A stretch of DNA of 64,000 nucleotides from an uncultured Planctomycetota bacterium (GTDB lineage Bacteria; Planctomycetota; JAJSAM01; JAKLKS01): contig CAZSIX010000015.1 of the NCBI GenBank assembly GCA_964607145.1, positions 3,014-67,013 of the forward strand, given 5' to 3'. The translations under genes were made by a program, and so were the position numbers. Positions 47,607-63,927 of the stretch are shown piece after piece. The notes under the pieces are model-generated. The model made no database searches. It was not told the DNA's origin and saw only the letters and a list, made by a program, of their open reading frames with translations. Positions within the stretch are counted from its first letter, which is position 1. Each line of letters begins with the position of its first letter.

Positions 47607-48820
47607 CCCTCCACCTCCAGGTCGACGCCGCGGGCGAACCGCTCCACGGCCTTCGCCGCGGCGGCGCCGGCGGCCCGCGCGGGGACGCCCGTGCGCGCCG
47701 CGTCCTCCAGGTGGCGCCGCACGACGCGGAGGCACCCCTCCCGCCGGTGCGCCTTCAGGTCCACCCGGCCCACCAGCCGATCCCCCGCCAGCACGGGGAG
47801 GCAGTAGTAGCCGTACACGCGCTTCGCCGGGGGGACGTAGATCTCGAGCACCTGCCGGAAGCCGAACAGCGCGAGGGCGCGCTCCCGGTCCCAGAGCACG
47901 GGATCGAAGGGGGAGAGCAGCACCGCCCGCTCCGTGGACGGTGCGGCGCGGCGGAGGCGGGTCGCCGTCTCCAGGTCCGCGGGCCGCACCCACCCCGCCG
48001 TACGCACGCCGTCCTCCCCGACGAGGTCGCACGGGAGCACGCGGCCCTCGTCCGCGAGCCGCCGCAGGGCGTCGCGCACGGGCGCGCGGCCCCGGAGCTG
48101 GAACGTCTGCGCCAGCGTCCGCTCCGTGGCCCAGCCGTGCCCGTCCAGCGCGCGATCGAGCAGGACCGCCAGCGCGTCCCCCTTCGCCAGCGGAGCCTCG
48201 CGGAGGGCAGCGGGGATGACCCGCTCCGCCAGGTCGTACACGCGCTGGAAGCCGATGCGCTCCCGGACGGCCAGTTCCCCCGCGAACCAGAGCGCCGAGA
48301 GCACCTGGCGCGCGGGACCGTGGTTCCACATCCCCTCCCGGCGCTCGTCCTCCACGTCCAGCGAGCGCAGCGGGCCGTCGGCGCGGACGCGGGCGAGGAT
48401 CTCCCGGGCCAGCGCCTCGTGGCGGCCCACGACGTCCCCCCACCAGGGGTGACGCCGGAACGCGAGGCGGCGGAACTCGAAGGCGGGATACAGGTCCAGC
48501 GGGATCCACGACGCCGCGTGCCCCCAGTACTCGAAGAGCGGCGCGCCGGGCTTGAGCAGATCCTCGGCCACCGCCATCTCCAGCCCGTCCAGCCGGGAGT
48601 GGAGCACCATGGCGTGGCTGCGCGCCCCCGTGACCGTGATGGTGTCCAGTTGCAGGTAGCCGAAGCGACCGACGACGGCGTGGCACGCCCGCCGTTGCGC
48701 CCCCTCCCCCCGCCCCGCCGACCGCGGCAACCCGCCCCCGCGCCCGGGCCAGAGCCCCGCCCGGAACAGCGCCAGCCGCCGCGCGCCCGTGACGTCGATG
48801 GACTCCCGCGCCGGCGTGGA
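47603..48820 (-). CDS. Winged-helix DNA glycosylase, YcaQ family (DUF1006)
   Basis: Aligns in my reading with E. coli YcaQ across several blocks: FQRVYDL, LSPFDPVLWDRERALALFGF...YVPPAKRVYGYYCLPVL...LVGRVDLKAHR. GTG at 48820 with GGGAG SD. 405 aa, matching the size of YcaQ. Confidence 0.7.
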   Translation of the reverse strand, partial: STPARESIDVTGARRLALFRAGLWPGRGGGLPRSAGRGEGAQRRACHAVVGRFGYLQLDTITVTGARSHAMVLHSRLDGLEMAVAEDLLKPGAPLFEYWGHAASWIPLDLYPAFEFRRLAFRRHPWWGDVVGRHEALAREILARVRADGPLRSLDVEDERREGMWNHGPARQVLSALWFAGELAVRERIGFQRVYDLAERVIPAALREAPLAKGDALAVLLDRALDGHGWATERTLAQTFQLRGRAPVRDALRRLADEGRVLPCDLVGEDGVRTAGWVRPADLETATRLRRAAPSTERAVLLSPFDPVLWDRERALALFGFRQVLEIYVPPAKRVYGYYCLPVLAGDRLVGRVDLKAHRREGCLRVVRRHLEDAARTGVPARAAGAAAAKAVERFARGVDLEVEG

Positions 48821-49090
48821 GCCCGCGCGACCGCGCCCTCCGGCGCGCACGACTCCCGCCTTCCGCTGCCGCCCCTTCGCCACTGCGCTGCCCCCCCGGT
48901 TCGTCGCGGTCGCCGCCCTCCGTCGCCGCGACGGCGCGGCCCATTGTCCCGGACCGCGCGCTCCCGTGCCCAAGGCCGGCCGAGGGTCGGGGAGGGGGTA
49001 CACGCCCTCGCCCGTACTGTCCGGACCGGCGACACGAAGCGGAAGTCGCGCTCGACGACGGCACGCCGGACCCGGGGACAGCGGGTCGCG

Positions 49091-49191
49091 GGACGGGCGC
49101 GGATCGGGCCGCCGGCGGATAGGATGCCCCCGTCGCGAGGACGCGGCCCTGGGTCCCCGTAGCTCAGTAGGATAGAGCGGCTGGTTCCTAA
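49091..49191 (+). repeat. Left inverted repeat: copy of the tRNA-Arg 5' flank (about 62 bp) plus tRNA nucleotides 1-39 (acceptor stem to anticodon loop), truncated after TTCCTAA
   Basis: Sequence ...gccgccggcggataggatgcccccgtcgcgaggacgcggccctgg-GTCCCCGTAGCTCAGTAGGATAGAGCGGCTGGTTCCTAA is the reverse complement of 51901-52001, with about 2 mismatches over 101 bp. Confidence 0.85.
49153..49191 (+). pseudogene. Truncated tRNA-Arg(CCT) 5' half (39 nt), non-functional
   Basis: Identical to nt 1-39 of the intact tRNA at 51863..51939. The downstream sequence (ggcggggg...) cannot pair to close the anticodon stem. Confidence 0.8.
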
Positions 49192-49449
49192 GGCGGGGGT
49201 CGGGTCGAAAGGCTCCCGCGGGCGCGTTCCAACCTCGCCACGACGCGCCACTTGCGGCGCCCCCCGTAGAGCGGCACTTTCCGTTGTGGACCTCAGGTCC
49301 GCAGGAGGTGTCCACGGTTGCTCGTTGCGCTCTGTCGTTGATGGGGGGAGGACGAGTGACGGTGGAGTTGCTCGAAGGACGCGCGAAGCCTCCTACCGCC
49401 CGTAGACTTCACTCCGATCGCTGTAGGCGGCCTGCACAGGAGGGACCCC

Positions 49450-50247
49450 ATGGTCTCCGAGCTCCTCTGTCTCCAGATTGCGAGATGCCTCCATGGTCGC
49501 ACCTCCGTGTTCAGTCGGACGTTCAACCTGGAGGACAACGCGCCGCCGAAGACCGAGCGGTCGGAGGAGAAGAACTCGCTGACGGAAGCAAGCCTGATCA
49601 GGCCCCTCCTCGCGGAGCACGATCTGGCCGACATCGAAGCAGCCATTCGATGGCTTCAACTGGGAGAGTACCTCGGGCGCACGCAGTGGGGACTCGGGGG
49701 CCCTTGGGTACACGTGCTCACCCCGAAGGGGGTCGAGCTATGTGAGCGGGGAGGATTCCCCGAGCAGGAACGACGGCTCTTCTATCACGAGGAGCCTCAC
49801 CAGGTCTTCCTGGCGCACCAGTTTCGATCCGAGGACGAAGGCCTGGAGAGCGCTCTACGAGCGACGCTCTCAGATGCGGGGTACGTCGTCGTGGATGGCC
49901 AGGTCGATGGCCTCGAGCAGTTCCGCCAAGCGATCTTCGCGAAGATCAAGAGGTCACGGTTCTTCGTTTGTCTGCTGACCCAACGCGCGAGGCTTGAGGC
50001 TGGGGGGGCGGTATCGAGCGTCTGGCTCTACCAGGAGATCGGAGCCGCTGTGGCGTTGAAGAAGTCACCGTTGCTCTTCGTCGAAGACGGGATGGACCCT
50101 CACTTCGCCGGAGAGTTGCAGAAGACGTATGAGTACGTTCCGTTCACTCGAGGATCCGCAAGCCCGCAGTGGTGCAAAGCCGTGTCACGACTCAACACTG
50201 ATCTTGCTCGCGAGGGGATCCCCTTGCCCAAGGGCAAGGCCGAGTAG
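49450..50247 (+). CDS. TIR-domain protein (N-terminal unknown domain of about 110 aa + C-terminal TIR-like domain with conserved glutamate)
   Basis: SD CAGGAGGGACCCC before ATG. TIR-like blocks: QVFLAHQFRSEDEG (betaA), LRATLSDAGYVVVDGQ, IFAKIKRSRFFVCLLTQ, and SSVWLYQEIGAAVA (W..E motif with the putative catalytic E). Lower GC than the flanks. Confidence 0.7.
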   Translation: MVSELLCLQIARCLHGRTSVFSRTFNLEDNAPPKTERSEEKNSLTEASLIRPLLAEHDLADIEAAIRWLQLGEYLGRTQWGLGGPWVHVLTPKGVELCERGGFPEQERRLFYHEEPHQVFLAHQFRSEDEGLESALRATLSDAGYVVVDGQVDGLEQFRQAIFAKIKRSRFFVCLLTQRARLEAGGAVSSVWLYQEIGAAVALKKSPLLFVEDGMDPHFAGELQKTYEYVPFTRGSASPQWCKAVSRLNTDLAREGIPLPKGKAE

Positions 50248-50281
50248 CGAACCTCTCACGTCCTCAGGAGATGTGCGCCTC

Positions 50282-51274
50282 CTATTCCTCCTCCGCCCTG
50301 AGTCGCCGCCAGTGCTCCTCGTTGTCCATGAACGGCCTTCCGAGGTCGATGTTCCCAAGGTTCGCTGAGGCGAGTCGATGGAGTACGCGTGCGCCATCTC
50401 GCACGAACAGCCCCAGCCTCTCGGCGAGAACCTGAAAGGTCGGCGTCGACCCGCCCTTCTTCCCAAGAAGCGAGGCGATGTGCTCGCGGTCGGCGGCTCG
50501 GTCGACGTTCTCGATGTTGCTGAACACGGCCTCCATCACGGTGGCGGCACTGACACGATCGCCTCTGCGCCGCACGTTCTTTGGGGCAAACGGCAGGAGA
50601 GTCATGATCTCCTGGTCGAGAGCGTCATCGTCGAGCCAGCCCGGGGGCGTCGGCGTGAACAGGTTGAAGTCCTCTCCGACAACGGGCATCGTCGTTCCGC
50701 GCTGCCACGGGCGGTTGGAGTGGACAACGAACCGGTTGCGATAGAAGCGCATGTTGTAGTGGAGCCAGAGCATGTGGCCCCGACAGTCAGTCCAGAGGTC
50801 GTTGAGGATCTTGGTCCGCCCTGCTTCGAACTCCAGGAGGAGTTCCACGAAGGGGTGCTTCTTCTTCCACGCCGCCGGCTCGATGCACATCGCTTGGAGA
50901 GCGACCTGATCCAGCAGCACACCGCCGAAAACGTAGAGAGACTCGAGGTCCAGCTGCATGAGCCCCGTGAGTGAGTGCTGCTCGCGGAGCGCCTTCTGTA
51001 CCTCCTCAGGATAGGGAGTTCCTCTGGGCCACTCCGCGCGGCGCGTCGCGGAGGTGAGCGCCGCGAGTTCGTTCAATCGCTCTCTGCCGCGGTAGAGGCG
51101 ACCGAGGATCTTCCTGCAGTCGCCAAGCCGTGCGAGCGCGTGGCCGCTGTGATGGAAGAACCCGTACGGTCCGGCCGGGGGCTTCAGACCTTCGAGGACG
51201 GTCTTGCTGAGTCGATGCAGGGCCGCCTCTGCATCGCCGAACAGCTTCTTCATCTCGTCGGGTGGGATGGCCAT
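50282..51274 (-). CDS. Hypothetical protein (330 aa), unknown function, in the TIR cassette
   Basis: SD GGGAGA 5 nt before ATG 51274. Non-repetitive, balanced composition in a lower-GC segment. No recognisable motif. Confidence 0.6.
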   Translation of the reverse strand: MAIPPDEMKKLFGDAEAALHRLSKTVLEGLKPPAGPYGFFHHSGHALARLGDCRKILGRLYRGRERLNELAALTSATRRAEWPRGTPYPEEVQKALREQHSLTGLMQLDLESLYVFGGVLLDQVALQAMCIEPAAWKKKHPFVELLLEFEAGRTKILNDLWTDCRGHMLWLHYNMRFYRNRFVVHSNRPWQRGTTMPVVGEDFNLFTPTPPGWLDDDALDQEIMTLLPFAPKNVRRRGDRVSAATVMEAVFSNIENVDRAADREHIASLLGKKGGSTPTFQVLAERLGLFVRDGARVLHRLASANLGNIDLGRPFMDNEEHWRRLRAEEE

Positions 51275-51295
51275 CCAATCTCCCGCTCTGCCGAT

Positions 51296-51826
51296 TCACT
51301 GCGTGCGCACGGGTACGACGCCGACTCCACCGCCGCCCTTGCTCTGGAACCGCGCGACCAGAGCCCTTTCCATCTCAGGCTTGGTCTCGACGTCTGCGAA
51401 GAAGGCTCTCGATGCCTGAACGAGTGCGGCGAACAGGTCCTCTGCGTTCAGGAGTGTCTGTCCGGTCCCCTGGTCAACCTTCAGGTGCTGGTGCCCATTG
51501 TGGTGGGTGAGAAGGAACCCGCGCGGTGAGAAGGCATGCACGAGACCGTTTCGGAGATCGTAGAGGGCGCTGGCGTGGCCGTGGTACTCGCTCGGAAAGT
51601 ACTCGCGGACAAATGCCGTGAACCGGTTCTCCACGCCCTTCACCTTCTTCGATCCTTCGTAGCGGTAGCCCGCGAGCGCGTCGACTCCCGTGACCATGCA
51701 GACGAAGGACAGGAACGCGCTGTCGTTGTTGATCATCGGGGCGATCCCGCCGAGGTACCACTGGCCGAAGTACTGGCGGACTGCTGCGGACTCCTCAGTC
51801 ACGGCGTTCCCTCCGATCCTCCCCAT
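51296..51826 (-). CDS. Hypothetical protein (168-176 aa), unknown function, first gene of a two-gene operon in the TIR cassette
   Basis: ATG at 51826 lacks an SD. An internal GTG at 51802 is preceded by GGAGGG at 6 nt spacing and is the more likely start. The stop is 21 nt before the next gene start. Confidence 0.55.
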   Translation of the reverse strand: MGRIGGNAVTEESAAVRQYFGQWYLGGIAPMINNDSAFLSFVCMVTGVDALAGYRYEGSKKVKGVENRFTAFVREYFPSEYHGHASALYDLRNGLVHAFSPRGFLLTHHNGHQHLKVDQGTGQTLLNAEDLFAALVQASRAFFADVETKPEMERALVARFQSKGGGGVGVVPVRTQ

Positions 51827-51862
51827 CGATGGAGCGAGCAGGCGAGGACGGGGGAGCGGGGC

Positions 51863-51939
51863 TGGTATCCCCGGCAGGAGTCGAACCTGCGACCTGCTGG
51901 TTAGGAACCAGCCGCTCTATCCTACTGAGCTACGGGGAC
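51863..51939 (-). tRNA. tRNA-Arg (anticodon CCT), 77 nt with encoded CCA
   Basis: Folded by hand: acceptor GTCCCCG/CGGGGAT (G1-U wobble), D arm GCTC-AGTAGGATA-GAGC, anticodon arm GCTGG-TTCCTAA-CCAGC, variable AGGTC, T arm GCAGG-TTCGACT-CCTGC, discriminator A, CCA. Confidence 0.85.
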
Positions 51940-52001
51940 CCAGGGCCGCGTCCTCGCGACGGGGGCATCCTATCCGCCGGCGGCCGGATCCCCGCCCGTC
52001 C
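51901..52001 (-). repeat. Right inverted repeat (5' half of the intact tRNA-Arg plus its upstream flank); partner of 49091..49191
   Basis: Reverse complement of the left repeat. Overlaps the last 30 nt or so of the integrase gene. Confidence 0.85.
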
Positions 52002-53304
52002 CGCGAGGCTCCGCGCCCGGGGCCGGCGCGCCGTAGTCGAGCGCGACGAGGCTCGCGCGCGTCCGGCTGTCCACCATCCTTGCGTAGATCTGCGTCGTCG
52101 AGAGGTCGGCGTGCCCGAGCACGCCCTGCAGGTCGGTCACCGCGGCGCCGCCCTCGAGGAAGTGCACGGCGAACGTGTGCCGGAGCGAGTGGAACGTGAG
52201 CCCCCGCCGTCCGTCGAGCCCGGCCCTCCTGAGCGCGCGCCCGAAGGCCCGCCGCACGGTGACCCACGGCCGCCCGTACCCGGAGAGGAAGATGGGCTCC
52301 GCGTCGGGGATCTCGCGCCTCTCCTTCTCGGCCCGCGCCGCCCGGGTGCGGAGAAGTTCCTCGGCGAGCCGCGGGTGGAGCGGGATCCGCGACGCGTTCC
52401 CGACCTTCGGCCGGAAGAGCGAGAGCGTCCCCGTCCCGAAGTTCACGTCGCCCCAGGTGAGCCGCAGCAGTTCCCCGAGCCGCGCGCCGGTGTAGAGCCC
52501 CGCGGCGACGAGCGGCCGGAGCGCCGGGCCCGTAGCATCGAGGAGCCGGAGCGCTTCCTCCTTCGCGAGCGCGACTCGGGGCTGACGGACCTCGCGGGCC
52601 TTCGTGACGCGGGCGATGGGGTTCTCGCGGAGACGTCCGAGCCGCACGAGGCGGTTGAACGAGGCCCCGAGGACCATCAGCGCCCGGTTCACGGTCGCGT
52701 TGGAGCAGGCCCTCGCGACCTCCCTCACCTCGGGGTGGTCCACACGCCCGGGGCGACGGACGGTCTTCCACGAGCGCTCGATGCGCCACGCGCGGAAGGC
52801 CTCGATGTCGGCCGGCGTCACCGCTTCCGCGGGGAGCCCGGCGAGCGCGCTCCGAGCGATGGTGCTCCGGTGGCCGGCGTAGCCCTCGACAGTGCTCGCA
52901 CAGCGACCCGAGACCCGGCGCGAGTCGATGTACTCGTCGATGGCGTCGAGGACGGAGAACACGCGCGGGGCGCCGTCAGCGGACGGCGCGCCCCCTACGT
53001 TCCCCTCCCGCAGGCCCGCGGCGGAGTGCCCGCCGCCACCGGGCGCGAGGACGGACGGGGGAGGCTCGTATCGCCCCGCGAGGAGCGCCTTGCGCACCTC
53101 GGCCAGGAGGGCCTCCGCCTGGCGCCTGGACGGGACCGCGCGGACGATCTCGCGGACACGGCCGTTGGGCGCGCGGCGACGCTCGGGGTCCGGGTAGCGC
53201 ACGTACCACGAGGACTTCGAGGTGGGTTTGCGGTAGACGCGGCCGAAGAGCCGCCGCCGCCGGCGGCCGCCGGCCCCGTCCGGGGAGTCAGGCGCGGTGT
53301 CCAT
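51970..53304 (-). CDS. Tyrosine-type site-specific recombinase / phage integrase
   Basis: Catalytic region motifs: ARLGELLRLTWGDV, HSLRHTFAVHFL, GHADLSTTQIYAR (R..H..R..Y). ATG at 53304 (MDTAPDSP...FGRVYRKPTSKSSWYVRY); in-frame ATGs at 53346 and 53367 are alternatives. The upstream 214 aa of the ORF is junk. Confidence 0.85.
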   Translation of the reverse strand: MDTAPDSPDGAGGRRRRRLFGRVYRKPTSKSSWYVRYPDPERRRAPNGRVREIVRAVPSRRQAEALLAEVRKALLAGRYEPPPSVLAPGGGGHSAAGLREGNVGGAPSADGAPRVFSVLDAIDEYIDSRRVSGRCASTVEGYAGHRSTIARSALAGLPAEAVTPADIEAFRAWRIERSWKTVRRPGRVDHPEVREVARACSNATVNRALMVLGASFNRLVRLGRLRENPIARVTKAREVRQPRVALAKEEALRLLDATGPALRPLVAAGLYTGARLGELLRLTWGDVNFGTGTLSLFRPKVGNASRIPLHPRLAEELLRTRAARAEKERREIPDAEPIFLSGYGRPWVTVRRAFGRALRRAGLDGRRGLTFHSLRHTFAVHFLEGGAAVTDLQGVLGHADLSTTQIYARMVDSRTRASLVALDYGAPAPGAEPRGTGGDPAAGG

Positions 53305-53366
53305 GACCGCATGAGGGCGAGGGAGGGCGAGCACCTCAAGGGCCATCGCGCCGGCGGCGGCGGCCA

Positions 53367-53660
53367 TCACGGCGCGCGCCGGAGGACCCGGGCCCGGAGG
53401 GCGTCCACGTCCACCGACGGGCGGCCACGGGGGACGGGCGGCGCCGCGTGCCGATAGTGCAGGGCCGCCACGAACGCCTCCAGGCCGTCGCGCCGCACGA
53501 GCAGACGCCCCCGCCGCGACCCGACTGTCGCCACTCGGATGGACGGGATGCTCCCGTCCGCGAGGAGCGAGTACAGCATCGTCCGACCGACGGGGAGGAG
53601 CGCGAGGGCCTGCGCGACAGAGAGGAGATCCCCCGGTCGGAGGGCGGCGCCGGCGTTCAT
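53367..53660 (-). CDS. Excisionase-like / AlpA-type helix-turn-helix DNA-binding protein
   Basis: LLSVAQALALLPVGRTMLYSLLADGSIPSIRVAT...RRGRLLVRRDGLEAFV resembles HTH_17/Xis. ATG at 53660 (cat 53658-53660). Confidence 0.65.
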   Translation of the reverse strand: MNAGAALRPGDLLSVAQALALLPVGRTMLYSLLADGSIPSIRVATVGSRRGRLLVRRDGLEAFVAALHYRHAAPPVPRGRPSVDVDALRARVLRRAP

Positions 53661-54067
53661 CGCCCGGGAACGCTCGCTGCGCAGACGAACCCGTGCGCGA
53701 CGGCCAGCGCCCGCGGCGCGGCACACACGGGGCCGTGGGGGTGGTGTGCCACGACGACCCCGCAGCGGATGCACCGGACGCCGAGGTCGTCGCCCTCGAC
53801 CAGGCCGAACCGCGCGAGGGCCCTCCGGCGGGCACGCGTGCGGGCGGTCGCGGCGGCGCGGATCTCGTCGAAGGGAGTCGTGTCGATGGGCTCGGCGCGG
53901 CCGCCCGGTCGGGGCGACGCGACGGGCAGCGGAAGCCCCGCCTCAACGTGCAGGTACACGACCACGCGGCGCCGCTGCTCGCGCGTCGTCCGTGGCGGCG
54001 CGTAGCCGAGCCGCAGGAGGTCGAGGATCCTCCGTCGCTGCTCGCGTGTCGGGCCCATGGCGCGCAT
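53657..54067 (-). CDS. Hypothetical protein (136 aa) with Cys/His cluster
   Basis: TAATG overlap with the upstream gene (verified). CxxC...HHPHGPVC near the C-terminus. The stop abuts the excisionase start. Confidence 0.45.
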   Translation of the reverse strand: MRAMGPTREQRRRILDLLRLGYAPPRTTREQRRRVVVYLHVEAGLPLPVASPRPGGRAEPIDTTPFDEIRAAATARTRARRRALARFGLVEGDDLGVRCIRCGVVVAHHPHGPVCAAPRALAVAHGFVCAASVPGR

Positions 54068-54759
54068 TACCGCGACCTCGGCCGGCCCTCGCGGTCGTAC
54101 TCGACGAGGACGATGGGGCGCGGGTCGCCCTTCGTGGCCGCGATGGCCGCGGCTACTCGCGAGAGCGCCTCCGCGATCTGCTCGTCCGTCGGCTCGGCGA
54201 CGAGCGCGAGCGGCTCGATGGCCGCCTTCGCGACCTCGATGTCGCGGTGGAGAGCGTCGATGCCCGCCTGGTTGCTCCCCGCGCGGCGAACCCAGGACTC
54301 CGTCCCGTTCCACGAGGTCTCCCGCTCGCTCCGCGTCCGGCGGAGCCCGCCGGCGAGGGACGGCCACGCGCGGTGGACGTCGTCCGCCTCCTCGATGGCG
54401 GCGAGCAGGCGCGGGTCGGCGGAGCGGCGGAGGGCGAATTCGGCTCCGCCCAGTCCGTTCCGGACGGAGGAGTCCTCGTGGAACGCCGCCGAGCGGGCGT
54501 CGGACAGCGCGTCCCGCGCCGCGCGCAGCGCCGCCTGTGCCTCCGCGACGACGACCTCGCGCGCCGCCACGCGCTCGCGAAGCCCGGGCAGCACGTCGCG
54601 GCGGCGCCGGAGGAGCGCCTCGCGCTGCGTGGCGAGGTCCCGCCGCGCCTGCACCGCCGCCTCCTTCGCGGCTGCCGCGGCCTCCGCCTCGGCGAGGAAC
54701 CGCTCGCCCGCCGGCGTGCGGAGGAACGTCTCCAGCCGGTTCGTCCCGTTCGTCGTCAT
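54067..54759 (-). CDS. Hypothetical coiled-coil protein (230 aa)
   Basis: SD GGAGGAG 7 nt before ATG 54759 (verified). The N-terminal 136 aa of the ORF is junk. Confidence 0.55.
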   Translation of the reverse strand: MTTNGTNRLETFLRTPAGERFLAEAEAAAAAKEAAVQARRDLATQREALLRRRRDVLPGLRERVAAREVVVAEAQAALRAARDALSDARSAAFHEDSSVRNGLGGAEFALRRSADPRLLAAIEEADDVHRAWPSLAGGLRRTRSERETSWNGTESWVRRAGSNQAGIDALHRDIEVAKAAIEPLALVAEPTDEQIAEALSRVAAAIAATKGDPRPIVLVEYDREGRPRSR

Positions 54760-54869
54760 CGTGCACTCCTCCAGGGGCCCCGGGTCACTCGCGCCGGTGC
54801 GGGCCCGCGCACCGGCCTCCCTCCGCGCGAGGTTCGCGCGTCGCGGAGGCTCGATCCAGCGGTGCCGCG

Positions 54870-55241
54870 TCACGGGCGCGGCCCCGCGGAGCGCCGGAGT
54901 TCCTCGCCCCTTCGGCGATGGGCCTCGCGCTGCGCGGCGGTGAGGCCCGACCAGGCGGCGTTCAGGTCGCAGGCGCGGACCCAGGCTCGCGCGCGGTCCC
55001 ACCGGCGGCGCGCGTACTCCCGTCGGCGCCGGCAGGGAACGCCGCAGTACCGCCGGGACCGCCGGCCGCGCGCCGATGGCGCCCCGAGCGGCGCCCCGCA
55101 CGCCGCACACGCCGGGACCGCGCTTGTCTCCACCGGCCCCCCCTCCCCTTGTTCCGCCGGCGCGCACGCGGGCTTGCGCGCCCGGTCCCGGGGCCGAGAC
55201 CGGTCACGAACGACCTCCCCCCGGGGCTCCGGCCGCTTCAT
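54870..55241 (-). CDS. Small basic zinc-ribbon protein (CxxC...CxxC); tentative
   Basis: ATGA overlap with the primase-helicase stop. PACAACGAPL...RRYCGVPCRRRREYARRRW. High Arg content makes this uncertain. Confidence 0.35.
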   Translation of the reverse strand: MKRPEPRGEVVRDRSRPRDRARKPACAPAEQGEGGPVETSAVPACAACGAPLGAPSARGRRSRRYCGVPCRRRREYARRRWDRARAWVRACDLNAAWSGLTAAQREAHRRRGEELRRSAGPRP

Positions 55242-57382
55242 CCGCCGCACCCGGTCATGCGGGGCTCCTCGTCCGCCGTCGGCCCGGCCGCCGCCGTCCC
55301 GGCGAACAGGATTTCCTCCCATCCCCTCCGCGAGGGACGGGAGACCCGCCCCTCCGCTCCGCCCGTGTCCTCCCGTCCCTCTTCGAGGGAGGGACGGGAG
55401 GACGGGACTCCCGTCCCGGGGTCCGGGGACGGGACCGGGACGGGCGGGACGAGTTCACCGCTCGCGACCGCGTAGCGGTAGGGGCTCCCGGGCTTGCCGG
55501 TGCCCGTGCGGACGATGGCGCCCCGGGAGAGGAGGGCCTTGAGCGCGCGGGCGGTGCACTCCCGCTTGCCGCCGATGCCGGCGCAGACCTCGTCACGGGT
55601 CGCGGGTTCGCGCGTGGCGCGCAGGTGGTCGAGCGTGCGCTCCGAGGCCGCGGCCGCACGCACCTCCGCGGCCCCGCCCTGGCGGAGGACGCTCGCGCCG
55701 CGTAGTTCGAGAATCTGCTCGTCGAGCGGGGTCTCCCGGAACCGGCTGTACGCCTGGAGCGACCGGAACGTGTCCGACGGCATCTCCTTCGCCCGCCGGA
55801 GTTCCAGGACGACATCCATCGCGCCCGCGATGGCGGACGACCCGCGCGCCCCCTGGCCCTCCTCGGCGTCGGACTTGCGCAGGTGGTGGATGAGGAGCAC
55901 CGCCAGGTCCTCCCCGGCCGCGTCGAGCACGGCCCCGAGGGCGTCCTGCATCGCACCCGCGTCCTTCTCCGCGTCGCGCCCGAAGCGCCCCCACGCGGTG
56001 AGCGTGTCGATGCAGAGGAGCACCGCGCGGATGCGGCGGGCCTCGCGCACGCCCTCGAGGAGGAAGTCGCGGAGGGAGAACTCTGGGTGCATCTCGCGGC
56101 GGGTGAGGAAGCGGGTGTCGCGGAGGCCGAAGCGCGATGCCTTCTCGTGGATGGTGGCCGGCCCCTCCTCCGAGAGGACGACCGCCGGCCCCGCCGCCGT
56201 CGCGAACCCGGCGAACGGCTCGCCGCGCTCGAGGGCGCGGAGGATGGCGAACACGAACGTCGACTTGCCGGCCTTCGGATGGCCCGACAGCAGCGTCACC
56301 GCTCCGCGCGCGAGGAGGCCCTCGACGATCCACGGGACTCCCTCCGCAGCCTCCTCCGCGAGGTCCTCCACGCCGCGCCAGCGGAGAAGGCCCGGGGCGT
56401 CGCGGACGGCGCTCGCGAGCGCATCGCGGCGACCGGCGCGGAGCGCGTCCGCGACGTCCTTCGCCCCGTCGAGGTCGGCGAGGACGGCGTCCCATTCGAG
56501 GAGGCGAACGGCGGCCCCGGCGGCGCGGAGATCGCGTGTGGCGCGCTCCATGCCCTCGGCCCCGGCGCGGTCGTCGTGGAGCGCGAGGACCACGTCGCGG
56601 CCGCGGAGGGCGCGGGACCACTCCGCGTCGAACCGGAGCGCCCCCGGGAGGGCCAAGCGGACGTGGTCCCGGGCGACGTCCGCCGCGACGACGGCGAGGA
56701 GGTCGTGGCCACCCTCGAGCAGCAGGACCGGCGCGTCGGGCTCCCGCGCGAGCCGGACCACCTCGCCGAGGACGCCGCCGCGGGAACCGGGGAGGTCCTC
56801 CTCCTTCGAGTGCCGCCCAGGGCGGACCTTGGCGCCAACGACCCCGCCGGCCGGCGCGAACAGCGGGAGGACGAGGCGCGCGGGTTCGCCGCGCTCGTCG
56901 GGGAGCACGCCGCCGCCGATGGCGGCGAGCGCCTCGGGAGTCCCGTCGTACCGGGCGAGGAGGTCCCGGACATCGGCGTCATCCCGGCGATCCCGAAAGT
57001 AGATGCGCGCGTCCTCGACGACCTGCTGGAACCGGCCGGGCGCCTGGGCCGGTTCCGGCTGCAGCTCCGGGGCGCCGAAGTACCTCCGCTCCAGTTCCGC
57101 GGCGGCGGCGGCCGATCCGTCGAGCCCGCGGACCTCGACGGCCAGCGCGAGGAGCCCTCCCGCACCGAACCCGCAGACCCGGCACTCGGCCGACGCGCCG
57201 TCCTTCGCGACGACGAGGGAGGGGTGGCGGTCGCCGTTGCGGTGGCGCTCGCCCCGGGGGCAGCGAACCGCCGCGCCCGGGCGGGGGGCGTCGCGAAGGC
57301 CGATGAGCTCCCCAAGGACCCTGGGCGCGAGGCCCGCGTCTCGGAGCCGATCCACGACGCTCGGCCAGGCGCGGGGGCTCAC
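55238..57382 (-). CDS. Replication primase-helicase fusion: CHC2-like zinc finger + Toprim primase domain + AAA_25/RepA-like (RecA-fold) ATPase
   Basis: GTG at 57382 with GGAGGAG SD. Zn-finger CPRGERHRNGDRHPSLVV...CRVCGFG. Toprim-like VLLLEGGHDLLAV...VVLALHDDRAGAEG. Walker A LLSGHPKAGKSTF, Walker B AVLLCIDTL, and LAVLLIHHLRKSD. Confidence 0.75.
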   Translation of the reverse strand: MSPRAWPSVVDRLRDAGLAPRVLGELIGLRDAPRPGAAVRCPRGERHRNGDRHPSLVVAKDGASAECRVCGFGAGGLLALAVEVRGLDGSAAAAAELERRYFGAPELQPEPAQAPGRFQQVVEDARIYFRDRRDDADVRDLLARYDGTPEALAAIGGGVLPDERGEPARLVLPLFAPAGGVVGAKVRPGRHSKEEDLPGSRGGVLGEVVRLAREPDAPVLLLEGGHDLLAVVAADVARDHVRLALPGALRFDAEWSRALRGRDVVLALHDDRAGAEGMERATRDLRAAGAAVRLLEWDAVLADLDGAKDVADALRAGRRDALASAVRDAPGLLRWRGVEDLAEEAAEGVPWIVEGLLARGAVTLLSGHPKAGKSTFVFAILRALERGEPFAGFATAAGPAVVLSEEGPATIHEKASRFGLRDTRFLTRREMHPEFSLRDFLLEGVREARRIRAVLLCIDTLTAWGRFGRDAEKDAGAMQDALGAVLDAAGEDLAVLLIHHLRKSDAEEGQGARGSSAIAGAMDVVLELRRAKEMPSDTFRSLQAYSRFRETPLDEQILELRGASVLRQGGAAEVRAAAASERTLDHLRATREPATRDEVCAGIGGKRECTARALKALLSRGAIVRTGTGKPGSPYRYAVASGELVPPVPVPSPDPGTGVPSSRPSLEEGREDTGGAEGRVSRPSRRGWEEILFAGTAAAGPTADEEPRMTGCGG

Positions 57383-57576
57383 GACCTCTCCTCCCCGACG
57401 CCCTCGACCTGCACGGTGGCGACGGGAACTCCCCGCTCGTTCGCCTGGAGCCAGGTGCAGCCGTTCTCGTGGGCCAGCTGCACCCCTCGCACGGCACCGG
57501 CCCGGACCCGCGCCCGAGTGGTCGCCCCGCACCCCGGGCACCGGACCACCGCGACCGACTCGTCCCTGTCCGCCAT
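57379..57576 (-). CDS. Small zinc-ribbon protein (65 aa), first gene of the integrase-primase operon
   Basis: SD GAGGAGG 4 nt before ATG 57576 (verified). RCPGCGATT...NGCTW. The stop abuts the primase GTG. Confidence 0.6.
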   Translation of the reverse strand: MADRDESVAVVRCPGCGATTRARVRAGAVRGVQLAHENGCTWLQANERGVPVATVQVEGVGEERS

Positions 57577-57807
57577 CGAGCCTCCTCAGCCGATCGCCCC
57601 CGCACGGCTCCGTCGAGGCTCTGCCCTCACGGAGGCTCGTGCAACCTGTGCGACGGTCTCGAGCGTCGGTCACCGGGAGCGTCGTTCAACACCCGGAGCT
57701 GATCGGGCGTCCTGCTCCGTCAGACTCCGGCAACCCACCCGGGGCGGCGGCTTGCGTCGGTTACCTTCTGGCGTTCTCTCGTGGGATGGACCATCAGGGC
57801 GAACGAG

Positions 57808-60642
57808 ATGACCAGCGAGGAGGAGACCCGGCAGCGGCTCATCGACCGCCAGTTGCGGCTGGCGGGGTGGGACCTCCGCGACCCGACCCAGGTCGTCGAG
57901 GAGCACGAGATCGACCTGGTCAAGGCGGGCGTCGTTCCGCCGTTCGCGGCAGAGGTCGCCCCCGAGCACTACGGGAAGCAGTACGCCGACTACGCGCTGC
58001 TCTGCCGGGGAAAGGTGCTCGCTGTCCTCGAGGCGAAGAAGACCTCCAAGGACGCGCAGCTCGGGCAGGAGCAGGCGCTGCAGTACGCCGAGAACATCCA
58101 GCGACTGCAGGGGGGACGGGTGCCGTTCGTGATGTACTCGAACGGCCACGACTACTTCCTCTGGGAGTCCGACCGTTATCCTCCTGTCGCGATCCTCGGG
58201 CTGCCGAGCCGGTCGGACCTCGAGTGGATGGACCAGAGGCGGGAGAGCCGGAAGCCACTTTCCGTCGAGCTCATCAACCCGACCATCGCCGGGCGTGACT
58301 ACCAGATCGCCGCAATCCGCGCCGTCCTCGAAGGGCTGGAGGCCCGGCGGCGCAAGTTCCTGCTCGTCATGGCCACCGGGACCGGGAAGACCCGCGTGGC
58401 CATGGGGCTCATCGACGCCCTCCAGCGGGCCCACTGGGCGAAGCGGGTGCTCTTCTTGGTCGATCGCATCGCCCTGCGCGATCAGGCCATCGACGCGTTC
58501 CGCGAGAACCTCCCCGACAGCCCGTACTGGCCGCGGACTGAGGGGAAGTCCGTGGAGGCGGAGTGGCGCGGGGACCGTCGGCTCTACTGCACGACCTACC
58601 AGACGATGCTGAACCTCATCGAGTCCGGGAGGACTCCCGAGACGCGCCTCTCGCCCCACTTCTTCGACCTCGTCATCGCCGACGAGAGCCACCGGTCCAT
58701 CTACAATACGTACAAGGCGGTCCTCGACTGGTTTTCCGGCATCCGTCTCGGTCTCACCGCGACACCGCGCGACCACATCGATCACGACACCTTCGCGATC
58801 TTCGACTGCGAGGCGCAGGACCCGACGTACGCGTTCACCTACGACGAGGCGATCGCCCACGAACCGCCGTACCTCTGCGGCTTCCGCGTCCTGAAGGTCC
58901 GCTCGAAGTTCCAGCTCGAGGGCATCCAGGGAGGGACGCTCCCGGAGCCCGTGCAGAAGAAGCTGATCGCGGAGGGGAAGGACCCCTACGAGATCGACTT
59001 CGAGGGGAGCGAGCTTGAGAGGAAGGTCACGAACTCCGGGACCAACGCGGTCATCGTCCGGGAGTTCATGGAGGAGTGCATCAAGGACCCGACGGGGACC
59101 CTTCCCGGGAAGTCGATCTTCTTCGCCATCTCCAAGGACCACGCCCGGCGAATCGCCGCGATTTTCGACCAGCTCTACCCCGAGTACGCCGGACGGCTGG
59201 CCCGCGTCCTGGTCTCCGAGGATTCTCGCGTCCATGGCAAGGGCGGGCTCCTCGACCAGTTCAAGCACAGCGGCATGCCCCGGGTCGCGCTCTCCGTGGA
59301 CATGCTCGACACCGGCATCGATGTGCCGGAGGTGGTGAACCTCGTCTTCGCCAAGCCGGTGTTCAGCTACACGAAGTTCTGGCAGATGATCGGTCGCGGG
59401 ACCCGCGTCCTCCCCGCGCCGGGGAAGAGGAAGTCGTGGTGCCCGGAGAAGGACGAGTTCCTCATCATCGACTGCTGGGGGAACTTCGACTTCTTCAAGA
59501 TGAAGCCCGAGGGGAAGGAGCCCAAGCCCCAGGTCGCGCTCCCCGTGCGGCTCTTCCACGCGAGGCTCGACCTCCTCGACGCCGGGACCTCGAGTGGGCA
59601 ACCTGACGCCACGGCCGTCGCCGTCGAGGGGCTGCGAGCGGACCTCGCCGCGCTCCCGGAGCAGAACGCCATCGTCACCGGGAGCCGGAGGGACCTCGAC
59701 CCCGTCCTTGCCGACGAGTTCTGGCTCCACCTGACGCCCACGAAGGTCGCCGCGCTGCGCAGTTCGGTGGCCCCGCTCCTCCGGGCGCGGTCGGTGCTCG
59801 AACCGAAGGCGATGCGGTTCGAGATGGAGGCGGTCCAGCTCCTGTGCGCCCGGCTCGGGAGCGCCGGGGTCCTGCTAGAGGGACTGCGCGACAGCCTGGT
59901 CGAGCAGGTCGCCGAACTCCCGCTGTCCGTCAACACGGTGGCGGAGGAGCGGGCTTCGGTTGAGCAGGCGCTTCGGCCCGGCTGGTGGGACGAGACGGCG
60001 ATCCCGGAGGTCTGGTCCACCACCAAGAGGCTCGCGCCTCTCATGCGGTTCCGGCAGGCCCCTCGCGATCCGCTCCTGCGCCTCGACCTGGCCGACCTCA
60101 CGGTGATCAAGGAGGGTCTGGAGTTCGGGCCGGGTCACGAGGGCCGCACGAGCACCGGGTTCCGGGCTCGCGTGGAGGCCTACGTCCGTTCGCTCGTCGC
60201 GACGAACCCGGTGATGGCCCGGATCGCGGCCGGCGAGACCCCGGGGGAGGTCGAGCTGGCGGAAGTGGCGGAGATCCTCCGTCAGGGGGATCCGGTCGTC
60301 ACCGAGGACGCCCTCCGGCGTGCCTACGACCTCCGCGCAGCGGGGCTGACGCAGCTCCTCCGGCACGTGCTGGGGTTGGAGCGCCTGCCCTCCTGGGGGG
60401 AAGCGGTCACCGCCGCCGTCGACGGGTTCATCGCGAGGCACACGACTTTGACCCAGCTCCAGATCCGGTTCCTCCAGACCCTCCGCACGTTCCTTCTACA
60501 GAACCGCCAGTTCGATCGGGGCGCCCTCCTCGAGCCCCCCTTTACCCAGCTCCACCCCAGCGGCGCCCGCGGGGTCTTCTCCGGGCCCGAACTCCAGGAG
60601 GTCGTTGCCCTCGCGGAGGGGCTGGTCGCCGGAAGGGGGTAG
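57808..60642 (+). CDS. HsdR-family helicase/nuclease (type I restriction R subunit-like: HSDR_N nuclease domain + ResIII/DEAD-DEAH helicase)
   Basis: N-terminal EEETRQRLIDRQLRLAGW...YADYALL...VLAVLEAKK (Mrr/HsdR_N-like). Walker A LVMATGTGKT. DEAH-like LVIADESHRS. GLTATP. Helicase C MLDTGIDVPEVVNLVF...QMIGRGTR. An in-frame GTG at 57781 is the alternative start. Confidence 0.75.
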   Translation: MTSEEETRQRLIDRQLRLAGWDLRDPTQVVEEHEIDLVKAGVVPPFAAEVAPEHYGKQYADYALLCRGKVLAVLEAKKTSKDAQLGQEQALQYAENIQRLQGGRVPFVMYSNGHDYFLWESDRYPPVAILGLPSRSDLEWMDQRRESRKPLSVELINPTIAGRDYQIAAIRAVLEGLEARRRKFLLVMATGTGKTRVAMGLIDALQRAHWAKRVLFLVDRIALRDQAIDAFRENLPDSPYWPRTEGKSVEAEWRGDRRLYCTTYQTMLNLIESGRTPETRLSPHFFDLVIADESHRSIYNTYKAVLDWFSGIRLGLTATPRDHIDHDTFAIFDCEAQDPTYAFTYDEAIAHEPPYLCGFRVLKVRSKFQLEGIQGGTLPEPVQKKLIAEGKDPYEIDFEGSELERKVTNSGTNAVIVREFMEECIKDPTGTLPGKSIFFAISKDHARRIAAIFDQLYPEYAGRLARVLVSEDSRVHGKGGLLDQFKHSGMPRVALSVDMLDTGIDVPEVVNLVFAKPVFSYTKFWQMIGRGTRVLPAPGKRKSWCPEKDEFLIIDCWGNFDFFKMKPEGKEPKPQVALPVRLFHARLDLLDAGTSSGQPDATAVAVEGLRADLAALPEQNAIVTGSRRDLDPVLADEFWLHLTPTKVAALRSSVAPLLRARSVLEPKAMRFEMEAVQLLCARLGSAGVLLEGLRDSLVEQVAELPLSVNTVAEERASVEQALRPGWWDETAIPEVWSTTKRLAPLMRFRQAPRDPLLRLDLADLTVIKEGLEFGPGHEGRTSTGFRARVEAYVRSLVATNPVMARIAAGETPGEVELAEVAEILRQGDPVVTEDALRRAYDLRAAGLTQLLRHVLGLERLPSWGEAVTAAVDGFIARHTTLTQLQIRFLQTLRTFLLQNRQFDRGALLEPPFTQLHPSGARGVFSGPELQEVVALAEGLVAGRG

Positions 60643-60729
60643 TCGAGGCCGATAAAGGGGTACTCTCGACAACCAGATTACCCCTTTACAGCTGGCCCTT
60701 GCCCGGATAGGCTACGCCCCCGAACGGCC

Positions 60730-61788
60730 ATGCACTCCCTCACACCCGCCTACCTCGACCGCCTCTCCTTCTCTGCGGAGGAGGCCGCCGCTCTGTCCGC
60801 CCTGATGGAGATGCGCGGGCGCCAGGAGCTCTTCGTCAACCAGAAGCCCGAGGTACTGGAGTCCCTGCGCCAAGTCGCCATCATCGAGTCCACGGAGTCG
60901 AGCAACCGCATCGAGGGCATCTCGGCGCCCCGGGACCGGATCGAGGCCATCGTCCTCCGCCCCACGGAGCATCGGAACCGCTCCGAGCAGGAGATCGCCG
61001 GCTACCGGGACGCGCTCGCCCTCATCCACGAGTCCCACGAGCACATGCCGCTCACGGTGAACGTGCTCCTGCAGATCCACCAGATGCTCTACCGCTACCA
61101 CCCCGGTCCCGGGGGGCGGTTCAAGCTCGCGGACAACCGCATCGACCACTACGACGGGAAGGGGAACCTCGTCCGTGTCCGATTCCGTCCCACTCCGGCA
61201 TTCGAGACCCCGGCCGCCATGGATGCGCTCGTCGCGGGGTATCAGGATGCGAACGGCGCCCGGGCGCTGCACCCGCTGGTCGCGGTCCCCCTCACGATCC
61301 TGGACCTGCTCTGCATCCACCCGTTCACGGACGGGAACGGCCGCGTCGCGCGTCTGGCGACGCTCCTGCTCCTCTACCACCACGGGTTCGCGCTCGGGCG
61401 CTACATCAGCCTCGAGCGCATCGTGGAGGAATCGAAAGAGGGATACTACGAGACGCTCGAGGCCAGTTCGAAGGGCTGGCACGAGGGGAAGCACGACGTC
61501 CACCCGTGGCTGAACTACTTCTGGGGCGCGCTGACGCGGGCGGGCCGCGAGTTCGAGGAGCGGGTGGGAAAGGTCGCCGACGCCCCGGGGACCAAGAGCG
61601 AGATGATCCGCGCCGCGGTGATGCGTAGGATCGGCCCGTTCTCCAGTGCGGCGATCGAGAAGGACTGCCCCGGCGTGAGCCACGAGCTTGTTAGGCGCGT
61701 TCTGCGTTCCATGAGAGACGAAGGGATCATCGCGGTTCAAGGACGTGGGCGCGGGGCCAAGTGGCTGCGGTCTGCAGAATCGAGGTGA
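60730..61788 (+). CDS. Fic family protein (Fic/DOC AMPylation-type motif) with C-terminal winged-helix
   Basis: Canonical Fic motif HPFTDGNGRVARL. ATG at 60730. Confidence 0.85.
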   Translation: MHSLTPAYLDRLSFSAEEAAALSALMEMRGRQELFVNQKPEVLESLRQVAIIESTESSNRIEGISAPRDRIEAIVLRPTEHRNRSEQEIAGYRDALALIHESHEHMPLTVNVLLQIHQMLYRYHPGPGGRFKLADNRIDHYDGKGNLVRVRFRPTPAFETPAAMDALVAGYQDANGARALHPLVAVPLTILDLLCIHPFTDGNGRVARLATLLLLYHHGFALGRYISLERIVEESKEGYYETLEASSKGWHEGKHDVHPWLNYFWGALTRAGREFEERVGKVADAPGTKSEMIRAAVMRRIGPFSSAAIEKDCPGVSHELVRRVLRSMRDEGIIAVQGRGRGAKWLRSAESR

Positions 61789-61792
61789 CACG

Positions 61793-63292
61793 ATGCTCAC
61801 AAGACTAGTGGTCAACGGGTTCAAGAACCTGGACGGCATCGATGTCAGGCTCGGTCCGTTCACATGCGTCGCGGGGCCTAACGGCGTCGGCAAGTCGAAC
61901 CTCTTCGACGCCATTGAGTTCCTGGGGGCCCTGGCCGAGCACCCGTTGATGGATGCTGCGCTTGCCGTTCGAGGCGGCGAGGCGCGCCGCGGTGACGTGA
62001 GGAGCCTTTTCAGGCGGACGGGGGACAAGACCGCAGAGTCGATGAAATTCCTCGCGGAGATGATCATCCCCTACACGGGTGTCGATACGCTCGGTCAACC
62101 CGCCAAGGCCTCCATGACGTTCCTTCGGTACGAGTTGGAGCTGGGGTATCGCGATGATCCGTCGGTGCGAGCGATGGGAAAGCTCGAGGTGCGTCGCGAG
62201 ACGATGGTCCACATCAATCGCTCCACCGCCAAGTCCCAACTCCGCTTCCCGCACAAGAAGCCTTGGCGGGACTCCGTAGTGAGGGGGCGCCGGAGCAGCG
62301 ACTACATCTCAACCGAGGACAAGAGCGGCGAGGCGGTCATCTCCCTGCATGCAGACACAAGCGGGGCGAAGGGTGGCGGAAAGCCACGGCGCGCATTGGC
62401 ATCCAGTCTGCCCCGCACGATGCTCTCCAGCGTGACCAACGCGGCCGAGCATCGGACCCTGGTGCTGGCGCGTCAGGAGATGGCTTCGTGGACCCACCTT
62501 CAGCTGGAGCCTTCTGCGCTTAGGGCTCCGGACCCGTTCACCGCAACCCGATCCATTGCCTCGAACGGTGCCCACCTGCCTGCCACGCTCTATGACTTGT
62601 CCCTGCGGGCGGAACGGGGCAAGAAGGGAGGAGCGGAGGACCTGTACGCGCGCGTGTCCAATCGCCTATCGGAACTCGTCGAGAGTGTGCGAGCCCTGAC
62701 GGTGGACGTTGACGAGAAGCGCGAACTCCTCAGCATCGTCCTCACTGACCGCGAAGGCACCCCGCACCTTGCAGGTGCGCTCTCGGATGGCACGTTGCGG
62801 TTCTTGGCGTTGACGGTCATGGAGGAGGATCCAAGGAGCCGGCCTCTCCTGTGTCTCGAGGAACCTGAAAACGGGATGCATCCTTCCCGCATTCCAGCGG
62901 TCATCGAGTTGTTGGACGCTCTCGTGGTCGACGCTGACAGCCCAGTCAACGAGGAGAATCCCCTACGGCAAGTCATTGTCAATACGCACTCGCCCTCCGT
63001 GGTGGGGGGCGTCGTGGACGGCGATCTGCTGCTTGCGCGCGAGACGCGGGTCGCGGTCGAGGGCAAAGAGGAGTCCCGTCTCGCCCTGAGCCCCCTGTCG
63101 GGGACCTGGCGCCTCAAGGACAGCGCTGACGTGTCCCCGGTGACCCGCGGTGAACTGCTCGCCTACCTCAATCCGTTCTACGCCGACGAGGAGGAGAGTG
63201 AGCAGCCGAAGAACCGCCGGCGAGTGCGTGTCAAGGAACGTCCTGACCTCGGTCCGTTCCTGCCATTCCGGGAGCCGGAGACAACCGCATGA
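61793..63292 (+). CDS. ABC/OLD-family AAA ATPase (AAA_15/AAA_21-like, RecF/SMC-like N-terminal Walker A)
   Basis: SD GAGGTGA before ATG 61793. Walker A CVAGPNGVGKSNLFDAIEFL. Distal Walker B / D-loop LLCLEEPENGMHP. Confidence 0.75.
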   Translation: MLTRLVVNGFKNLDGIDVRLGPFTCVAGPNGVGKSNLFDAIEFLGALAEHPLMDAALAVRGGEARRGDVRSLFRRTGDKTAESMKFLAEMIIPYTGVDTLGQPAKASMTFLRYELELGYRDDPSVRAMGKLEVRRETMVHINRSTAKSQLRFPHKKPWRDSVVRGRRSSDYISTEDKSGEAVISLHADTSGAKGGGKPRRALASSLPRTMLSSVTNAAEHRTLVLARQEMASWTHLQLEPSALRAPDPFTATRSIASNGAHLPATLYDLSLRAERGKKGGAEDLYARVSNRLSELVESVRALTVDVDEKRELLSIVLTDREGTPHLAGALSDGTLRFLALTVMEEDPRSRPLLCLEEPENGMHPSRIPAVIELLDALVVDADSPVNEENPLRQVIVNTHSPSVVGGVVDGDLLLARETRVAVEGKEESRLALSPLSGTWRLKDSADVSPVTRGELLAYLNPFYADEEESEQPKNRRRVRVKERPDLGPFLPFREPETTA

Positions 63293-63927
63293 TCCAGGCG
63301 GCGGTGGTGACCGATGGGACCTCAGACCGCGTCTTGATTCCGGTACTCCGGTGGACGCTCGGCGTCGTGACTCCTGCTCCGATCGATGTGCGGTGGGCGG
63401 ACTTGCGGGGGCTTCGGTCCCCGCCGCGAGGCCTGGAGGAACGCATCTCACGCGCGGTCGAGCTCTATCCCTGCCAACTCCTCTTCGTCCATCGCGACGC
63501 TGAGGCCCAGCCACCGCGCTGGAGAGAAGCTGAGATCCAGCGAGCCAATCAGACTCAGGTGCCTCACGTCTGCGTAGTGCCAGTCCGGATGCAGGAGACC
63601 TGGCTCCTCCACAACGAGGCGGCCCTCCGTAGGGCCGCAGGCTGTCCCTCGGGAACCGGGCCACTGGACCTTCCGGCGCTCCGGGATGTCGAGTCGGTGC
63701 CTGATCCGCGAGCGGTCCTCCACACCGCACTGACACTCGCGAGCGAGTTGAGAGGCCGAAAGCTCCGGAAGTTCCGCGCGAATGTCGCTGCTCACCGCTT
63801 GGCCGAGCTTGTCGAGGATTGGTCTCCGCTTCGCGCTCTCCCGGCATTCCAGCGGTTGGAGGAACTCGCACGCGAGGCACTCCAGGCTCTTGGCGTTCCC
63901 CTCTATCTACCACCAGGAGCGAACTGA
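63289..63927 (+). CDS. DUF4276-like (RloB/Toprim-like) small protein, partner of the AAA ATPase
   Basis: ATGA overlap with the ATPase stop. 212 aa, matching DUF4276 size. N-terminal acidic Toprim-like motif AAVVTDGTSDRVLIPVL, then FVHRDAEAQ. Confidence 0.5.
   Translation: MIQAAVVTDGTSDRVLIPVLRWTLGVVTPAPIDVRWADLRGLRSPPRGLEERISRAVELYPCQLLFVHRDAEAQPPRWREAEIQRANQTQVPHVCVVPVRMQETWLLHNEAALRRAAGCPSGTGPLDLPALRDVESVPDPRAVLHTALTLASELRGRKLRKFRANVAAHRLAELVEDWSPLRALPAFQRLEELAREALQALGVPLYLPPGAN

Follow-up and report, generated by a model that had tools for sequence, protein, structure and literature searches.

P4-like satellites and Gram-negative phage-inducible chromosomal islands (PICIs) are small integrative elements that combine an integrase, an HTH_17/AlpA-type protein and a large primase-helicase and tend to carry defence cargo in variable slots; classically they lie at the 3' side of a tRNA gene. 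In Islander, a 5' fragment of the tRNA gene (tDNA) occurs in 159 of 3919 islands (about 4%) and a 3' fragment in 3760 (PMC4383910), so the 5' class is known but rare. Here we analyse a 64,000-nt stretch of DNA from an uncultured Planctomycetota bacterium (contig CAZSIX010000015.1, positions 3,014 to 67,013; hereafter the window), in which an operon of seven minus-strand genes reads into the 5' end of a tRNA-Arg gene. This region is very probably the backbone of an integrative island. It is best read as a non-conjugative genomic island that carries anti-phage defence genes and lies on the 5' side of the tRNA, with its far end beyond the window (past 64000).

The seven open reading frames (ORFs) run from 57576 to 51970, in the order and at the coordinates described earlier. 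They encode a 65-aa Cys-rich protein (57379..57576), a 714-aa primase-helicase (55238..57382), a 123-aa Arg-rich protein (p123; 54870..55241), a 230-aa conserved backbone protein (p230; 54067..54759), a 136-aa protein (p136; 53657..54067), a 97-aa HTH_17 (AlpA/Xis-type) excisionase, that is, a recombination directionality factor (xis; 53367..53660), and a 465-aa tyrosine integrase (int; 51970..53367). Five of the six junctions have overlapping stop and start codons: GTGA (57382-57379) joins the 65-aa protein to the primase-helicase, ATGA (55241-55238) the primase-helicase to p123, TAATG (54069-54065) p230 to p136, ATGA (53660-53657) p136 to xis and TGATG (53369-53365) xis to int. The junctions are thus as tight as the original prediction of contiguous genes with overlapping or abutting codons had it, or tighter, and the arrangement is a translationally coupled operon. 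Its sole gap, 111 nt between p123 and p230 (54760-54870), holds a GC-rich hairpin, CCGGTGCG-CGGGC-CGCACCGG, without a T-run. The GC content at third codon positions (GC3) is 0.89-0.96 for every proposed frame in a window of about 77% GC, which marks these as the true coding frames among the many spurious ORFs of GC-rich DNA.

The integrase matches Phage_integrase (PF00589) at 83.9 bits against a Pfam cut-off of 27.1, and PHROG 1 ('integrase') with E=7e-59. In an alignment of the window integrase with ten homologs (A3, 11 sequences), R296, K321, H393, R396, H419 and Y428 are all invariant, so the catalytic set R, K, H, R, H, Y is complete and includes the R-H-R-Y tetrad on which the original assignment had been staked. 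A scan of viral contigs with the integrase alignment returned only one distant match (25% identity). The excisionase, also called correctly beforehand, adjoins int and scores 30.3 bits for HTH_17 (Pfam cut-off 27), with a PHROG 66 ('excisionase') match at E=6e-4; its TIGR01764 score, 22.2 bits, falls under the NCBIfam cut-off of 28.8, and NCBIfam gave no match for operon proteins apart from int and xis. Among related loci, xis was detected in eight, from six independent contigs (L001, L002-4, L007, L008, L010, L012 and L044); these keep the xis–int pair, and in each of them, as in the window, the xis homolog lies just upstream of int.

Pfam and PADLOC searches of the 14 genes between 49450 and 63927 found no relaxase, coupling protein or type IV secretion gene. 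Virion structural, packaging and lysis genes are likewise absent from the visible part, where PHROG matches are confined to the integrase, the excisionase and the primase-helicase. The backbone had been labelled that of an integrative element resembling either an integrative and conjugative element or a prophage; the integrative character stands, and the resemblance finds no support in the visible part, which shows neither conjugative nor phage-structural genes.

The 714-aa protein had been described as a fusion of a CHC2-like zinc finger, a Toprim primase region and an AAA_25 ATPase. Its AAA_25 match is strong (75.7 bits; Pfam cut-off 27), placing it above threshold along with the integrase and HTH_17 domains, and its Walker A motif reads GHPKAGKST. 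Weighing against a primase is the protein's own Toprim_2 match of 18.0 bits, under the Pfam cut-off of 22.1; moreover, no zf-CHC2 Pfam match was obtained for the protein itself, and a degenerate CHC2-like motif, CPRGERHRNGDRHPSL...CRVCG, is visible in the sequence. A full scan of 1.84 billion representatives yielded 511 relatives at E<=1e-30, and 22 homologs make up the family alignment (A5). All 22 members match AAA_25, 18/22 match Toprim_2 and 2/22 match Zn_ribbon_DnaG, several have winged-helix family matches, and the consensus of the finger region is CPAHxDxxPSL...CxAGC. The Toprim residues E223, D271 and D309 are invariant in the family (D269 nearly so), as are K373 and D459 of Walker A/B and, likewise in the AAA_25 part, K370 and G372.

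Profile comparisons point the same way. PHROG 239 ('DNA primase/helicase') matches residues 39-379 (E=2e-15), and the A5 profile matches the structures of RSF1010 RepA (1g8y, 1.5e-11), Aquifex DnaG (2au3, 3.7e-10), T7 gp4 (~2e-9) and E. coli DnaG (6e-9), with DnaG structures overall between 4e-10 and 1e-6. The single protein gave only insignificant matches by phmmer against PDB sequences, and tblastn against plasmid and phage records gave none. The primase assignment holds despite the sub-threshold match of this copy because the Toprim domain, its acidic residues and the DnaG profile matches are all present at family level. Hence, the 714-aa protein stands, as judged from its sequence, as a predicted DnaG-type primase fused to a RepA-like helicase and a C-terminal winged helix, with a zinc finger that is degenerate in this copy; of the domains first proposed, AAA_25 is supported in the protein itself, Toprim through its family and CHC2 as a degenerate motif only. 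A 46%-identical primase-helicase occurs in another locus (L045 574-17892) of like layout: small protein, primase-helicase, small proteins, resolvase, HTH_17 and a different integrase. That locus carries a 5mC methylase, Vsr, HATPase, Z1 and DUF4420 as cargo, with a reverse transcriptase and bAvd downstream, and has no adjacent tRNA.

The remaining operon proteins are small. The 65-aa protein encoded by the first gene (GC3 0.92) has a 56%-identical homolog at the equivalent position in L044; the gene is present as predicted, and its earlier 'Zn-ribbon' label rests on a C-x2-C...H-x3-C pattern and on its only Pfam match, a sub-threshold Cys_rich_KTR (17.4 bits). In p123, which has a C-x2-C...C-x3-C motif, the C terminus is conserved in L007 and L002-4. 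Homologs of p230 occupy the equivalent position in L007 and L044 (50-52% identical) and in L002-4 (36%), and p136 has a 47%-identical homolog in L007. None of p123, p230 and p136 matched a family in Pfam, PHROG or NCBIfam.

The presumed attachment target is an intact 77-nt tRNA-Arg(CCT) gene with an encoded CCA (51863..51939, minus strand; ARAGORN, and Rfam tRNA at 69.3 bits). Its 5' end follows the int stop codon by 30 nt, such that int reads into the 5' end of the tRNA. The position of the integrase at the tRNA 5' side, regarded as atypical in the original prediction, is correct, and it is conserved in this integrase clade. The nearest integrases are a protein from a Planctomycetota metagenome-assembled genome (MAG; 72%) and metagenome proteins, and close relatives are 67-75% identical where full-length. 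In all close relatives with readable DNA after int, a same-strand tRNA gene comes next, after a gap of 30-210 nt. This tRNA is Arg-CCT in L001, L021 and L047 and Gly-CCC in L002-4, L008 and L044; the two anticodon loops are one base apart (TTCCTAA and TTCCCAA). In L021 the integrase is truncated to ~105 codons beside an intact tRNA. At a distance from this clade, the integrase of L011 (42% identity) faces the 3' end of a tRNA, the classical arrangement, and the C-terminal tail of P0014 (44%) resembles antisense-tRNA read-through, which would fit the classical pattern too.

Comparison of related elements places a boundary at the tRNA. Homology ends at its 3' end in 5/5 pairwise comparisons, one extending 48 nt beyond, and downstream of the tRNA the four Arg-type loci are unrelated to one another in sequence. 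Upstream, the window and L007 share a colinear stretch (73% nucleotide identity) that extends from int into the primase gene. The 41-nt tRNA 5' half (including two upstream G) matches only MAG.395 (L001/L005) in a scan of representative genomes. Two side observations concern the Gly-type loci. In L002 (8786-10297), tRNA-Gly(CCC) lies between a family integrase on its 5' side and an unrelated integrase facing its 3' end, that is, between two islands of opposite polarity. The three independent assemblies L002-L004 break at an identical point 7.2 kb upstream of the integrase, and this end of the element may hold a repeat or vary within the population.

A second, partial copy of the attachment region lies on the other side of the tRNA. 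Positions 49045..49191 (plus strand; inverted repeat I1) are an inverted copy of 51901-52047 and comprise the last 26 integrase codons, the spacer and tRNA-Arg positions 1-39. Across their 147 nt the arms show 92.5% identity (E=1e-56); they share the integrase stop codon and enclose a 2.7-kb segment of low GC content. Identity is perfect in an 85-nt block (49107-49191) whose end coincides with the final base of the anticodon loop TTCCTAA. The tRNA 5'-half fragment (49153-49191) lies downstream of the intact tRNA in opposite orientation. By tblastn the integrase remnant covers residues 435-465 (49027-49119), and no other integrase remains were found within the window. The 28 nt past the breakpoint of the copy weakly resemble a tRNA 3' half. 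As a pseudo-tRNA the left copy was rejected, being called by neither ARAGORN nor Rfam. Beyond it lies segment S (49215..49330, minus strand). By blastn and by alignment with L002-4, L008 and L044, it shares ~80% identity with the spacer that directly precedes tRNA-Gly(CCC) in the Gly-type relatives, and it includes a hairpin, GCGGACCTGAGGTCC. This 115-nt segment lies 28 nt from the breakpoint; in the relatives, 30 nt separate the spacer from the tRNA-Gly anticodon loop. A scan of viral contigs for segment S gave no match. High-GC host DNA resumes with a gene for an AlkZ-like glycosylase (47606-48760).

Three features, the stop of the conserved block at the tRNA, the placement of int against the tRNA 5' end and the break of the copy at the anticodon loop, are together read most simply as an attachment site (attP) that carries a tRNA 5' half. 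We lean towards a mechanism of 5'-half replacement built on this reading. An attP at the 3' end of int would carry the upstream region and the 5' half of tRNA-Arg(CCT), and Int would cross over within or beside the anticodon loop. On integration the host tRNA gene would have its 5' half replaced, and the island would end up on the tRNA 5' side. Going by what Int, Xis and primase-helicases are known to do, Int and Xis would excise a circle, which the primase-helicase would then replicate. The inverted copy at 49045-49191 would most simply be a 5' fragment left by an earlier related element. At the right end of the island, 5'-half replacement predicts a minus-strand copy of GTCCCCGTAGCTCAGTAGGATAGAGCGGCTGGTTCCTAA followed by host DNA.

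Several observations weigh against 5'-half replacement. Neither the window up to 64000 nor L001, L002 and L044 yielded a displaced 5' tRNA fragment in direct orientation; a far-end attachment repeat was not found in L010 either, and the left limit of the L044/L002 homology shows a hairpin and no tRNA fragment. The only partial tRNA copy is downstream of the tRNA and in opposite orientation, so that the Islander filters would reject it (PMC4383910), and its orientation would require one extra, undocumented rearrangement. No sigma-70 consensus promoter or terminator was found for the tRNA promoter that the element is proposed to supply, which consequently remains a supposition. Finally, compensatory changes in the tRNAs straddle the presumed crossover and would need matching by the host under 5'-half replacement. 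Between the window and L047 (1712-1788), G27-C43 of tRNA-Arg is exchanged for A27-T43, and between L002 (8786-8860) and L008 (2162-2236) the acceptor-stem pair C6-G67 of tRNA-Gly is exchanged for T6-A67.

Such changes are automatic if the whole tRNA travels with the element, and the variants are internally consistent within each locus. This is the core of a possible but doubtful alternative, tRNA complementation, in which the complete tRNA-Arg beside int is the element's own and a resident tRNA-Arg was destroyed when the element integrated through a short core in its anticodon loop. The island would extend from 49192 rightwards past 64000, the low-GC three-gene segment would be cargo, and the destroyed resident gene, its function now supplied by the element's copy, would itself be a relic of an earlier related element. 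An inverted, truncated copy that ends exactly at the loop is explained in this way without an extra event, and the enclosed segment resembles foreign defence cargo rather than host DNA (GC 62-64%, TIR-like and HEPN AbiU2-like proteins). An analogous mechanism, tRNA-dependent lysogeny, has been described in actinobacteriophages (Guerrero-Bustamante and Hatfull 2024; PMC10865867). Complementation is difficult to square, however, with homology between related elements that always stops at the tRNA 3' end, and it places attP 2.7 kb from int, whereas all loci show int and the tRNA in tight linkage. It also predicts a plus-strand tRNA-Arg 3' fragment, CCAGCAGGTCGCAGGTTCGACTCCTGCCGGGGATACCA, at the right end of the island. 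The expected 3' fragment is absent from the window, and no tRNA fragment lies 2-10 kb downstream of the tRNA in L001, L002 and L044.

The arms themselves raise a further, unlikely explanation that is compatible with either integration model: the 2.7-kb segment (49192-51900) may be invertible, by Int or by homologous recombination, and since either orientation joins one arm to the single tRNA 3' half, tRNA-Arg would stay complete. In its favour, the inverted arms terminate at a breakpoint of the recombinase type. All 11 mismatches fall in the outer 62 nt, the integrase remnant, with 0 in the 85 nt nearest the enclosed segment (Fisher p=4e-5), a pattern expected if the left arm is still selected or gene-converted. 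Recent gene conversion alone could give the same pattern, however, and only the assembled orientation is on record. Moreover, the core TTCCTAA is not palindromic; inversion would still be possible, and the origin of the inverted pair would be left unexplained. The 11 differing positions also exclude a mirror-image assembly artefact. They thereby speak against a highly improbable last account, in which the locus is a decayed, immobile remnant or a metagenome mis-join and the inverted copy has no biological meaning. Truncated integrases do occur beside intact tRNAs in relatives (L021) and no second attachment site is visible in the window; set against this, none of the seven backbone genes is broken, their junctions are coupled and the catalytic motifs are complete. 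As matters stand, no simple integration model accounts for the inverted copy.

The junction of int and the tRNA contains a further conserved element. The end of int and the 30-nt spacer (51940..51985, minus strand), which lie within the 85-nt perfect repeat, carry the conserved motif TAGGAT/TAGAAT...CCGTCGC. The motif (TAGRAT...CCGTCGC) is kept in L001, L021 and L047 and also in L008, there ~130 nt past the int stop. In L008 it is kept without overlapping the stop codon. It could be a promoter or a binding site. Motifs common to the int 3' end and the DNA past the left junction, sought as candidate arm-type sites, occur at chance level only.

The segment between the arms (49450..51826; GC 62-64%) holds three genes, encoding a 265-aa TIR-like protein (plus strand), a 330-aa HEPN AbiU2-like protein (minus) and a 176-aa protein (minus). 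The TIR_2 match of the first (22.8 bits) is under the Pfam cut-off. The second has more than 100 homologs, one of them named 'HEPN AbiU2-like domain-containing' by UniRef. A candidate partner for the 176-aa protein, taken from the neighbourhood of a homolog, showed no similarity. PADLOC gave no match for the segment; situated directly 3' of tRNA-Arg, the cluster may be an undescribed defence module.

Recognized defence genes lie at the opposite end of the operon. Divergent from it, on the plus strand at 57781..63927 (GC 63-69%; PADLOC and Pfam), are genes for a type I restriction R subunit (HsdR), SoFic, HEC-01A and HEC-01B, with PADLOC scores of 465 bits (REase_I), 125, 329 and 90, respectively; Pfam matches in this cargo are ResIII, EcoEI_R_C, Fic and AAA_21. 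The R subunit has no adjoining M or S gene inside the window, and it is followed by SoFic and then by HEC-01A and HEC-01B, whose genes overlap by 4 nt. The intergenic region between the operon and hsdR (57661-57765) contains three copies of GCGTCGGTYA, which could be an operator or iterons.

Islands in which an integrase, an excisionase and a primase-helicase ferry defence genes are common, and the backbone is in itself routine. The attachment site is less so. The clade lies consistently at the 5' side, which is rare, and at least one distant relative lies at the 3' side, a natural contrast with which to follow how the polarity of attachment sites switches. The inverted copy of the attachment site gives a concrete example of what the usual filters for finding islands would drop. 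If the element supplies the tRNA promoter and 5' half, expression of the host tRNA becomes dependent on element DNA, and such dependence, if true, would explain why truncated integrase stubs persist beside intact tRNAs. An improbable synthesis is that an element clade, probably of Planctomycetota, switched from the tRNA 3' to the 5' side, so that it supplies the upstream region and the 5' half, and that here inverted arms flank a flippable defence cassette that leaves tRNA-Arg(CCU) complete either way; alternatively, within the same synthesis, an element-borne tRNA would replace a destroyed one and extend tRNA-dependent lysogeny beyond actinophages.

Compared with the tRNA-dependent lysogeny of actinobacteriophages (PMC10865867), the window element appears not to be a phage, its tRNA abuts int and homology between relatives ends at the tRNA. 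The window holds a tRNA 5' half and a complete tRNA, whereas the second fragment of a disrupted tRNA is not seen in it. Islander islands with a 5' tDNA fragment are alike in having a tyrosine integrase beside a tRNA gene, an island on the tRNA 5' side and a breakpoint at the anticodon loop. They differ by their defining feature, a 5' fragment in direct orientation upstream of the intact tDNA with the integrase between, which was not found here up to 64000. The primase-helicase recalls T7 gp4, DnaG and RSF1010 RepA, in that the family profile matches the zinc-finger/Toprim region of DnaG and the primase part of T7 gp4 and the ATPase matches the RepA hexameric helicase. These matches are remote (E ~1e-9 to 1e-11, at profile level only), and the 714-aa protein has an additional C-terminal winged helix and a degenerate zinc finger. 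In contrast to P4-like satellites and PICIs, the element shows no packaging, capsid-redirecting or helper-interaction genes within the window, and its helicase is of the RepA/AAA_25 type, without sequence match to phage or plasmid records. What it shares with them is the set of an integrase, an HTH_17/AlpA-type protein, a large primase-helicase and defence cargo.

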